This document shows, piece by piece, positions 3,750 to 5,500 of a stretch of 64,000 bases of DNA. Position 1 is the stretch's first letter; each line of letters opens with the position of its first letter. The stretch is from Escherichia phage ES12: the sequence record MN508614.1, one strand, 5' to 3'. The notes under the pieces are model-generated. The model saw only the letters and a program-made list of their open reading frames with translations. It was not told the DNA's origin and ran no database searches. The position numbers and the translations under genes were made by a program.

Positions 3750-4082
3750 TTATTTTACTACTTTCCAATGCTGCATGTCAAGTTTACCAACTTTTTTCAT
3801 CTTCTCAATTAAGCGTTCGGCACGTTGGCGAGCTGTAACATAATACCATTCACCTAATTCATTTTGTTCAATTTTTCCAACGATTACTGTATTCAATTCA
3901 TAAATCCAACCAGTAAAGAAATTATGAACTTGAATTGTAAAGGTGAAATCTGTTCCCATACCTTCTGTTGTTTCTACTTCAATAATATCACCTTCAACTG
4001 CCATTAAGAACCACATAGTTTCATCATATTTACCATTGAAGCATTTAGTTTTAACTGCAGCGTTCAGATTAATCGTTTTCAT
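3750..4082 (-). CDS. hypothetical protein, 110 aa
   Basis: ORF track; ATG start. Confidence 0.55.
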   Translation of the reverse strand: MKTINLNAAVKTKCFNGKYDETMWFLMAVEGDIIEVETTEGMGTDFTFTIQVHNFFTGWIYELNTVIVGKIEQNELGEWYYVTARQRAERLIEKMKKVGKLDMQHWKVVK

Positions 4083-4139: not shown

Positions 4140-4160
4140 AACTTTATGCAATCTTTGGAA

Positions 4161-4189
4161 AATGAAAAAAGGACTCCCGAAGGAGTCCT
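4161..4189 (-). terminator. rho-independent terminator hairpin
   Basis: aggactcc-cgaa-ggagtcct stem-loop followed on minus strand by a U-run, immediately downstream of ORF 4194..4370. Confidence 0.6.
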
Positions 4190-4193
4190 CAAC

Positions 4194-4370
4194 TTATGCT
4201 TTCTGCTTACCAAAACGAGAAGCATCATCTCGAAGAACCGCACGTGCTCGGCGCATGATCTTCTCAACAGTTTGATTGATACGAGAGTTCGACCCACGCT
4301 TGTAGCCAGCGCGTTTAGAATCACCAACTTTCTTTTCAACTGCTTTCTTTGCTTTAGCTTGTTTTGCCAT
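4194..4370 (-). CDS. small highly basic protein, ~58 aa
   Basis: ORF track 4194..4412 trimmed to ATG at 4370 (MAKQAKAKKAVEKK...); Lys/Arg-rich. Confidence 0.45.
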   Translation of the reverse strand: MAKQAKAKKAVEKKVGDSKRAGYKRGSNSRINQTVEKIMRRARAVLRDDASRFGKQKA

Positions 4371-4768
4371 TATAAATTCTCTTTTAAATGAAAATGCAGG
4401 ACTTATTGGCATTGCCTGCGCAAGCCCTCAAGGGGAACATAAGTTTTTTGATATTTAACGACCAGGATAACCATAAACCCGTCATCATACCTTATAGCTC
4501 TTATCTGTTGCACACCGTTAGCTTAAAGGTTCCGGGTTCGATTTCTCGAGGATAAGATATATACTGATGGATATATAGGCCTTGAGGCGTACTCCCGATT
4601 GGCCATCACCTCGGGGTAGCATGCACTTGCCGCTATAAGAATAACATTCAAGAGGTACACCGTAAAACTGCCGGGGTCTTAAAACTATAATGATTCGCAA
4701 ATCATTAATCAGACAGTTCGACGGCTCCTCGTTTTAACTTCACACTAAGGCAGTGACTCTCCAATAAA

Positions 4769-5017
4769 TTACTTCAGTGTTACCACAAAGTGACGAACTG
4801 CTTTTCGTGCAGCAGAAGCCAGAGGCTTAGCATATTTAAGTTCATCTTTTTCCTGAAGCTCAGCAGCTAATGCAGTTTGAGCAGGATTCAGATGTTTGAA
4901 ATAACGCAGGATTTCAAGAGCTTCGGCTTCAACATCAATAGATGCGCCATAGTTTTCGTGACCATTATTCCATGCGTTTCGTTGCAGTTCAAGAGCGTGT
5001 TGTAATTGTTTAATCAT
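4769..5017 (-). CDS. rIII: rIII lysis-inhibition accessory protein, 82 aa
   Basis: 82-aa ORF immediately downstream of gene 31 as in T4; length and position match. Confidence 0.8.
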   Translation of the reverse strand: MIKQLQHALELQRNAWNNGHENYGASIDVEAEALEILRYFKHLNPAQTALAAELQEKDELKYAKPLASAARKAVRHFVVTLK

Positions 5018-5154
5018 TTAAAAATTCTCGTTAGAGATTAAAACTCGGTAGTCACGTTCTTCTGAATTTCATCTTCTTTCGACAGATCTCTCAGTTGTAG
5101 ACTACCACATAGAATTGTTCGGTTAACTTATTATTCCGACACCCAATTCATATT

Positions 5155-5164: not shown

Positions 5165-5500
5165 TCACTTATAAAGACACGGAATAGCTTTATAGTGACA
5201 GGTAACGAATTTTTGTTTAATTTCTTTTGGCTGCTTAAGACCCAGAGCTACAAAAGGGTGTGGAACGTTTCGAATTTGACCAACTGGAAGAGAAGTCAAA
5301 TCACCAACTTCGCAGAAACCTTCAGGAACATCAGGACCGACAGAGTGAACTACACACAGTTCAGGAACTTCACCTTGAACACGTTTACCGATAATAAGTC
5401 CTGATTCTGTAACTTCTTCATCACCGGCTTGTGCGGGTTCAGAAACTAAAATAACATATTCACCGACAGCACGAATTGGTAGCTGTTGTACTTCAGACAT
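5165..5500 (-). CDS. 31: gp31 co-chaperonin (GroES analogue), 111 aa
   Basis: Translation [40 protein letters not shown]... matches T4 gp31 as recalled. Confidence 0.95.

Follow-up and report, generated by a model that had tools for sequence, protein, structure and literature searches.

A previously undescribed RNA family in the spacer between rIII and 30.9 of T4-type phages

The 64,000-nt stretch of the Escherichia phage ES12 genome studied here (sequence record MN508614.1; hereafter the window) belongs to a Tequatrovirus, that is, a T4-type phage. In the spacer between its genes rIII and 30.9 lies a 151-nt element (positions 4489-4639, minus strand) which comparison across phages marks, with high confidence, as a conserved structured RNA. 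The covariance model built from its relatives, R1, matches it over its full length (cmsearch, 182.7 bits), and this match is the sole one in the window. The RNA constitutes a previously undescribed family; a search of the literature found no description of an RNA between rIII and 30.9.

An earlier, first-pass annotation of the window had flagged positions 4413-4768 as a GC-rich gap, poor in open reading frames (ORFs) and furnished with several hairpins, and had offered as its possible origins a structured non-coding RNA, a regulated 5' untranslated leader of the small basic-protein gene, and a decayed mobile element. The compositional claim is borne out: the G+C content of this segment is 43.5% against 35.5% for the whole window, above that of 97.8% of 356-bp windows, and rises to 47% (98.5th percentile) in the 151-nt core.

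Covariation, strand and coding capacity

In T4 the gap between 30.9 and rIII measures only about 200 nt, and alignment of the two shows that T4 lacks a sharply bounded block of ~153 nt, which the window carries between CTTGAATGT and ATGATGACG. The same block recurs with 93-96% identity in Klebsiella Jiaodavirus and Edwardsiella Kanagawavirus phages, where the surrounding spacer no longer aligns. We gathered 37 copies from GenBank, IMG/VR, and metagenomes into an alignment (A2), derived the helices from compensatory changes by eye, from mutual information, and with RNAalifold, and built the covariance model R1, 42 matches of which were realigned to yield 32 distinct sequences (A3). In A3, standard pairs fill 98.2% of the 1532 base-pair cells, and compensatory changes are seen in 23 of the 48 pairs; RNAalifold independently returned 21 compensatory pairs. 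Not one of 500 shuffles reached any of the observed measures, and controls in which the 3' partners were slid by 1-3 columns were paired in 29-43% of cells, with 3-7 compensatory pairs. This covariation across related phages, a check that the first-pass annotation had suggested, strongly supports its proposal of a structured non-coding RNA for the central 151 nt of the segment. Taken singly, the sequence does not fold with significant energy (z = -1.06 for the spacer as a whole and -1.99 for the core); hence, it proves nothing on its own and the case rests on the comparison from phage to phage.

The helices also disclose the strand of the RNA. They hold 57 G·U cells and 0 A·C cells, from which it follows that the RNA is made from the gene (minus) strand, which is also the strand transcribed for all neighboring genes. 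This asymmetry is not predicted by a function at the level of DNA, whereby the element would be a remnant akin to a miniature inverted-repeat transposable element, a homing site, or a recombination cassette, with hairpins that are functionless as RNA. We regard such an origin as very improbable. It would accord with the sharp borders between presence and absence of the element, at a junction that may be filled by nothing, by the RNA, or by an unrelated ~50-nt insert, and with the AT-rich inverted repeats that form its ends. However, these terminal repeats covary rather than being conserved in sequence, no target-site duplication was seen at the junction, and in most comparisons the element is better conserved than the adjoining genes. 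Moreover, there is one copy per genome, a conserved 20-mer of the element is found in none of 185,579 bacterial and archaeal species (one genome each), and neither 5,426 Escherichia coli genomes nor 72,556 plasmids contain a real match to the element as a whole. The decayed mobile element of the first-pass annotation is left without support by the same observations, namely the covarying terminal inverted repeat, the confinement of G·U pairs to one strand, the single copy per phage, and the absence of copies from bacteria and plasmids.

A further point on the side of a DNA-level feature comes from the promoter/stem-loop (PeSL) cassettes of T4-type phages, which Arbiol in 2010 and Comeau in 2014 are said to have described. 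The spacer belongs to a type of region in which indels are reported to be driven by such cassettes (PMC4122927; PMC2839356), and it resembles these indel hot spots in having alternative inserts at one junction, with short conserved stem-loops and promoter-like sequence on their flanks (PMC4122927). PeSLs are, however, terminator/promoter units of ~50-60 bp, whereas the RNA described here is the cargo and not the cassette; its fold is complex and it offers no good match to a promoter.

The element is equally hard to reconcile with a small or divergent protein-coding gene, a reading to which we give practically no credence. Every frame on both strands carries at least one stop codon in 37 of 37 copies, and indels of 1, 2, and 7 nt distinguish one copy from another, so that the 151-nt element is not coding; its substitutions track base pairing and not codon position. 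The stops in all six frames likewise dispose of the divergent coding sequence that the first-pass annotation had named as the finding that would overturn it. Its description of the segment as ORF-poor holds for the spacer at large: no ORF of at least 50 aa fills it, and the single 60-aa frame that it contains (4518-4700, TTG start) has no match among the PHROG families. In favor of coding stand the 'hypothetical proteins' of 34-60 aa annotated over the RNA in several GenBank records, viz., G29_00224 (MK327940), COW86c_228 (PP597396), MVRL236 (PP582757), and QHB49571 (MN395284). Small coding sequences labeled as 'hypothetical protein' likewise lie over the RNA in NC_070779 (PP427_gp260/261). 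Judging from their frames, which are not conserved, these annotations are probably spurious.

Anatomy of the fold

The helix P1 closes a four-way junction devoid of linker nucleotides, the other arms of which are P2, P3, and P4. Its 5' strand, CUUAUAGC, occupies sense positions 1-8 (4632-4639; sense position p corresponds to window coordinate 4640 - p, and all parts of the fold lie on the minus strand) and pairs with the 3' strand, GCUAUAAG, at sense 142-149 (4491-4498); five of the six counted pairs have changed on both sides, with GC, AU, UA, and CG all represented. The P2 arm (4578-4631), on which RNAalifold and our own counts agree, comprises P2, an internal loop, P2a, and the loop L2. P2 itself (GGC/GCC, sense 9-11 with 60-62) is invariant except for one U-G and leads into a near-invariant 8 x 6 internal loop, formed by AAGUGCAU and CUCAAG (sense 12-19 and 54-59). 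Beyond it, P2a is a 10-bp helix with bulged A47 and C51 (sense 20-29 with 42-53), paired in 99.7% of cells and compensatory in six of its ten pairs, and is capped by the 12-nt L2 (sense 30-41).

The neighboring arm, P3 (4558-4577), is a hairpin with a 7-bp AU-rich stem (sense 63-69 with 76-82), in which 3/7 pairs are compensatory and the closing pair is U·G in 30 of 32 copies. Its 6-nt loop L3, CCAUCA (sense 70-75; 4565-4570), is wholly taken up by a 6-bp kissing helix with the segment UGAUGG of L2 (sense 32-37; 4603-4608). All cells of this helix are paired and three of its six pairs are compensatory, the variants including UGAUGG/CCAUCA, CGAUGG/CCAUCG, CUAUGG/CCAUAG, and CAAUGA/UCAUUG. P2 and P2a together (3 + 10 bp) equal P3 and the kissing helix together (7 + 6 bp), and these lengths are constant; such an arrangement would fit a single molecule in which two stacks run in parallel and meet at their tops.

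The inverted repeats named in the first-pass annotation are all present but differ in standing. That written as 'atatat...atatat' is the covarying helix P3, whereas 'gagg...cctc' (GAGGYG/CGCCUC) finds no support, as it competes with the covarying P2a and kissing pairs; we rejected this helix on the alignments, in which it breaks in several lineages, namely in the Erwinia, Serratia, and Kanagawavirus copies.

P4, the last arm, pairs UCUUAUC (sense 83-89; 4551-4557) with GAUAAGA (sense 135-141; 4499-4505); all its cells are paired, with compensatory changes in 3/7 pairs, and it opens into a three-way junction with the branches P4a and P4b. The P4a hairpin, UCGA-GAAA-UCGA (sense 91-102; 4538-4549), combines a covarying stem (UCGA/UCGA, CCGA/UCGG, CUGA/UCAG, CCA/UGG) with a variable loop (GAAA, GUAA, GGAA, UAAA, or UAAU). 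P4b (sense 103-107 with 123-128, bulged U126; 4512-4537 with its loop) has changed only in phage Cronus, where one A-U pair has become U-A, and is otherwise invariant. It closes a conserved 15-nt loop, L4b, with the consensus GAMCCyuunaRGCUAA (sense 108-122), and is joined to P4 by the invariant strand GCAACA (sense 129-134; 4506-4511). Further tertiary pairs were sought among the unpaired columns, and support for them came solely from the single divergent copy of phage EcS1.

None of the 4227 covariance models of Rfam 15 matches inside 4489-4639 at E <= 10, whether in a scan of 1.4 kb or in one of 191 nt with lax filters; the covariance search that had been set as a test of the first-pass proposal thus returned no family. 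Neither did Rfam match over the divergent copies in loci L018-L021, L025, and L026, and a weak Atu_C8 match in the scan is only the terminator after 30.9. ARAGORN found no tRNA or tmRNA gene in the whole window. A tRNA-like candidate was rejected as well, its string GGTTCGATT lying on the plus strand and the RNA being made from the minus strand, where the place is taken by the 3' side of the P4a hairpin. A group I intron is not indicated either, with no Intron_gpI match in the Rfam scans and the element lying in a non-coding spacer. Several likenesses to known RNAs, namely to the E. coli RNase P RNA (the shared GUGCAACAGA), the SAM-I riboswitch (CUUAUC...ACCCGG.AACC...GGUGC), the B12 box, the 11-nt GAAA receptor, and the sarcin-ricin loop, were dropped because no model matched and because the strings in question vary or are base-paired here.

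The fold raises the question of a self-cleaving or otherwise catalytic RNA that would process the polycistronic rIII-30.9 transcript. Small ribozymes are often found in phage spacers, unlinked to particular genes. The natural hairpin ribozyme likewise has a four-way junction free of linkers, with adjacent arms able to lie side by side; the VS ribozyme is of similar size (about 150 nt) and has a loop-loop contact; and invariant nucleotides in internal loops, as in the internal loop and joining strand here, are a feature of such ribozymes. By analogy these resemblances might suggest catalysis. Yet, the arms of the hairpin ribozyme touch via two internal loops and those of this RNA via terminal-loop pairing, with no similarity in sequence or at the level of models; the models for self-cleaving ribozymes (hairpin, VS, twister-sister, hammerhead, pistol, hatchet, and HDV-like) found no match even at E <= 10; no cleavage site can be inferred from the sequence; and 150 nt is large for a self-cleaver. 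We therefore consider a catalytic role unlikely.

Distribution, position and mode of action

A search with the block alone retrieved 407 phage records with 408 places, a single place in all but one record; among the 60 matches listed, the RNA is either unannotated or lies under small 'hypothetical proteins'. The records that we opened belong to Tequatrovirus, Moonvirus, Karamvirus, Jiaodavirus, Kanagawavirus, Marfavirus, Muldoonvirus, Roskildevirus, and Kagamiyamavirus, together with unclassified Serratia and Erwinia phages. At least nine named genera carry the RNA, and in every opened record it lies between rIII and 30.9. The hosts of the carrier phages span at least eight genera, namely Escherichia, Klebsiella, Enterobacter, Citrobacter, Salmonella, Edwardsiella, Serratia, and Erwinia. 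Across genera whose flanks fail to align, the core retains 70-97% identity (80% in the Roskildevirus copy and about 70-74% in Kagamiyamavirus). It is under purifying selection, being 10-20 percentage points more conserved than the adjoining rIII and 30.9 DNA in most comparisons; the exceptions are phage EcS1 (L076) and, for 30.9, L075 and L077.

Distant relatives were also sought with a loosened 18-mer, GCTAACGGNGNGCAACAG, and these candidates were discarded: the pattern brought in 54 extra, unrelated IMG/VR contigs (L092-L145), which contain the stretch and none of which matches R1 (best E = 1.4). The sole such stretch examined, which came from the metagenome scan (L046, 2915-2934), sits in coding sequence (…LANGVQQ…), and GCTAACGGNGNGCAACAG is a trap for pattern searches aimed at the 151-nt RNA.

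The distribution is patchy. Among IMG/VR loci encoding rIII, 15 of 40 have the RNA; T4 is without it, and phages with identical or near-identical 30.9 proteins differ in its presence. In the Tequatrovirus group and the JS98/VR5-like group alike, one and the same junction holds nothing (the T4 type), the RNA, or an unrelated ~50-nt insert. The indel consists of the RNA alone and never takes in a protein gene. Its position varies too, with three insertion points relative to rIII and to a second conserved structure of the spacer, module X (4437-4489, see below): in Moonvirus and Cronus only 8 nt separate the rIII stop codon from the start of the RNA, which begins about 130 nt after that codon in Tequatrovirus and lies downstream of module X in Jiaodavirus, Kanagawavirus, and the Serratia phages, as opposed to upstream of X in the window.

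These facts bear directly on whether the RNA is a cis-acting, riboswitch-like sensor in a long 30.9 leader, in which a bound ligand would alter translation, termination, or decay downstream. The architecture invites the comparison. The lysine riboswitch (L-box) and other multi-helix aptamers, among them SAM-I and cobalamin, build their ligand pocket at unpaired junction nucleotides. They resemble this RNA in their P1-closed multi-way junction and in a P2 arm with a conserved internal loop; the lysine riboswitch further shares with it, in architecture only, a 6-bp L2-L3 kissing loop between neighboring arms; and aptamers of that type, at 150-180 nt, set conserved loops beside covarying helices, as is the case here. 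The P1-closed junction, loop-loop contact, invariant internal loops, and variable peripheral hairpins are thus typical of riboswitch aptamers, and the RNA precedes 30.9 on its own strand with no terminator between them. In contrast, the junction of the lysine riboswitch is five-way with a conserved core, and that of this RNA four-way with no unpaired nucleotides; moreover, the RNA departs from riboswitches in lacking a covariance-model match to any Rfam riboswitch family, an expression platform, and a fixed position relative to a regulated gene. The 3' strand of P1 has no conserved alternative pairing, being followed by module X in Tequatrovirus and by hairpin 1 in Jiaodavirus; the RNA is separated from the start of 30.9 by a variable distance and by further conserved modules; the RNA of Moonvirus and Cronus lies close behind rIII, as noted above; and the rest of the leader is kept without the RNA in T4 and in 25 of the 40 rIII loci. 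A sensor of this kind is accordingly improbable. The regulated 5' leader of the first-pass annotation fails for the core in the same way, given its three positions, the lack of an expression platform, and its clean absence from T4 and many relatives, but may still hold for the separate modules nearer 30.9 (4396-4489).

A passive structure in the message, protecting the 3' end of the rIII mRNA or insulating the cistrons without a partner of its own, is likewise a reading to which we assign a low probability. The RNA does lie directly after the rIII stop codon in several genera, and the spacer is full of other small hairpins and holds a pseudoknot. A protective hairpin, however, needs no invariant loops, kissing pairs, and two junctions kept intact across at least nine genera; module X separates the RNA from rIII in Jiaodavirus and Kanagawavirus; and the RNA is dispensable in close relatives with the same rIII.

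We instead favor, at about even odds, a self-contained accessory RNA that is probably released and acts in trans on a partner. A scan found no promoter or terminator next to the RNA: the flanks carry no conserved promoter and the nearest terminator is the one after 30.9. In the absence of signals of its own, the RNA is probably part of a message that reads through from rIII to 30.9. A candidate promoter resembling the early promoters of T4, TTTACg-N17-TATTcT, just upstream in Tequatrovirus, was set aside: transcripts from it would begin within P1, other genera do not conserve it, and its -10 part is missing from T4. The RNA is unlikely to regulate its neighbors, since nothing downstream is coupled to P1, its position is not fixed, and it is gained and lost alone. 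The autonomous RNA would be transcribed within the read-through message and released from it as a stable species, and the invariant internal loop, the L4b loop, and the GCAACA strand could together form a binding site for a putative partner, be it a protein, an RNA, or a small molecule. Such a partner would be common to all Enterobacterales hosts or belong to the core phage genome. As the RNA is dispensable, its function would be an accessory one, such as host take-over or counter-defense.

Two sets of phage RNAs provide precedents for parts of this picture. ROOL and GOLLD, like the present RNA, come from phages or prophages, are of unknown function, and have loop-loop pairings backed by covariation. 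They differ in their length (500-800 nt against 151 nt) and in often lying beside tRNA clusters, the present RNA being fixed in the rIII-30.9 spacer, and show no homology to it. In ROOL and GOLLD, pairings first taken as tertiary contacts proved to be intermolecular in homo-oligomers (PMC12286853), and by analogy the L2-L3 pairing could be intermolecular as well. The T4 RNAs rnaC (species 1) and rnaD (species 2) are also non-coding, made from the gene strand, 119-139 nt long, processed from a longer transcript, and of unknown function. However, they lie in the tRNA cluster, T4 has both and yet lacks this RNA, and R1 has no similarity to them: run with filters off against the T4 tRNA/rnaC/rnaD region, its best match reaches 6.6 bits and lies at neither rnaC nor rnaD.

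A bolder proposal, which we put forward only tentatively, is that the RNA is the first member of a new functional class, an optional module of T-even-type phages that acts as a ribozyme, binds a ligand, or self-assembles through L2-L3. Under this proposal, too, the invariant loops would be directed at a target that every Enterobacterales host shares, and host take-over and counter-defense are examples of the role they could serve.

Several points weigh against the accessory RNA that we favor. Its putative mode of action is inferred solely from absences, namely of an expression platform, a fixed position, and a linked gene. The RNA is always in one spacer and on the gene strand, which is compatible with a cis role in the polycistronic message, and the L2-L3 covariation would be expected equally from pairing within and between molecules. 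At the level of the fold, the copies are closely related (the effective sequence number of R1 is 1.06), so that the compensatory changes represent a limited number of independent events. The shuffle control takes no account of this relatedness, and the comparison with the slid controls shows the structure in too favorable a light, as one set of sequences served both to derive and to test it.

The T4-type phages have been closely studied, yet the RNA is unannotated or mis-annotated in every record inspected, which its absence from T4 may explain. Its complex fold with invariant loops, its strict conservation relative to the adjoining genes in most comparisons, and its wide yet patchy and dispensable occurrence are properties of the sort by which riboswitches, ribozymes, and ribonucleoprotein RNAs stood out before their functions were known. 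The natural pairs of carriers, ES26, JS10, and Bas36 Paracelsus among them, and non-carriers, together with the empty site in T4, make the function of this RNA directly testable. Should an RNA-based accessory or counter-defense function prove true, the conflict between phages and hosts would gain a participant of a new type; should the RNA be only a message-stabilizing structure, the finding would still correct the annotation of some 400 genomes.

Gene context and other modules of the spacer

Positions 4150-5050 of the window are 100% identical to Escherichia phage ES26 and more than 99% identical to many other records. The local genes are all on the minus strand, viz., gp31 (5165-5500), rIII (4769-5017; PHROG 1457, E = 5e-44, and GenBank annotations) upstream of the spacer, the small basic-protein gene 30.9 (4194-4370; PHROG 1427 and the T4 annotation) downstream of it, and 30.8 (3750-4082). 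The terminator scan places a strong intrinsic terminator after 30.9, at 4169-4190. Most nearby genes abut or overlap. The true spacer is longer than the ~350 bp of the first-pass annotation: it spans 4371-4768, or 398 nt, since 30.9 begins at MAKQ (window position 4370) in other genera. Many records, including that of T4, annotate 30.9 from an upstream ATG at 4412 (72 aa, MPISPAFSFKREFI MAKQ…), and the extra 42 nt (4371-4412) overlap a conserved leader hairpin; this longer start is probably a mis-annotation.

Around the 151-nt RNA the spacer holds a patchwork of other small RNA modules, all given here on the minus strand. In the 3' region of rIII lies an AU-rich hairpin, UAAUGAUU-UGCG-AAUCAUUA (4688-4707), which is shared with T4. 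Module X (4437-4489) consists of a hairpin, an H-type pseudoknot, and a conserved CGUWAAA linker; its stem pairs GACGGG with CCUGGUC (4478-4483 with 4460-4466) and its loop pairs with downstream sequence. It is found in every rIII-30.9 spacer examined, including that of T4 (L003) and about 40 other loci, and has no Rfam match. The hairpin stem covaries (GUGG/CCAC, GUC/GAC, GAC/GUC, GGC/GCC, GUU/AAC), and the pseudoknot stem is also compensatory across genera (GUUCAAGGUU/AAUCUUGGGU, UUAGUAGUU/AACUACUAA, UUGUGAG/CUCACAA). The sequence of X in the window also admits a reading as an early promoter of the sigma-70 type, with a -35 of GTTTAT and a -10 of TAAATAT.

The alternative ~50-nt insert (…CTATCAYGCGTCAGMAAAAGGTTAKCTGTSTAAGTCKTGG…) is seen in L051, L053, L056, L058, and L062 between CTTGAATGT and TATGATGACG, the exact junction held by the 151-nt RNA in the window. 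A similar core, ATGCGTCAGCAAAAGGTTAGCTGTCTAAG, occurs inside a GGCUCUA…UAGAGC hairpin downstream of module X in L068, L088, and L021, which represent other genera. The insert may be a third small RNA module of the spacer.

Closer to 30.9, the 'ccctcaagggg' repeat of the first-pass annotation (4425-4435) proves to be a small hairpin, CCCCUUGAGGG, followed by CUUGCG and kept in all relatives including T4. In phages COW86c (L019) and EcS1 (L021), of two genera, this hairpin with its CUUGCG (4425-4435 plus 4420-4424 in the window) occurs twice, the second copy standing upstream of the 151-nt RNA so that the two flank it, an arrangement that would suit a recombination or cassette border, in the manner of the PeSL stem-loops. 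The remaining repeat, GCAGG...CCUGC (4396-4419), is a hairpin of the 30.9 leader in the window, with GGGAGC...GCUCCC standing in its place in other genera. In L004, L005, L069, and L073, from other genera, the leader hairpin is followed by AUGUAUUUCUCC…AAAUGGAAGA, where UCUCC could possibly pair with the GGAAGA Shine-Dalgarno sequence and so exert translational control over 30.9.

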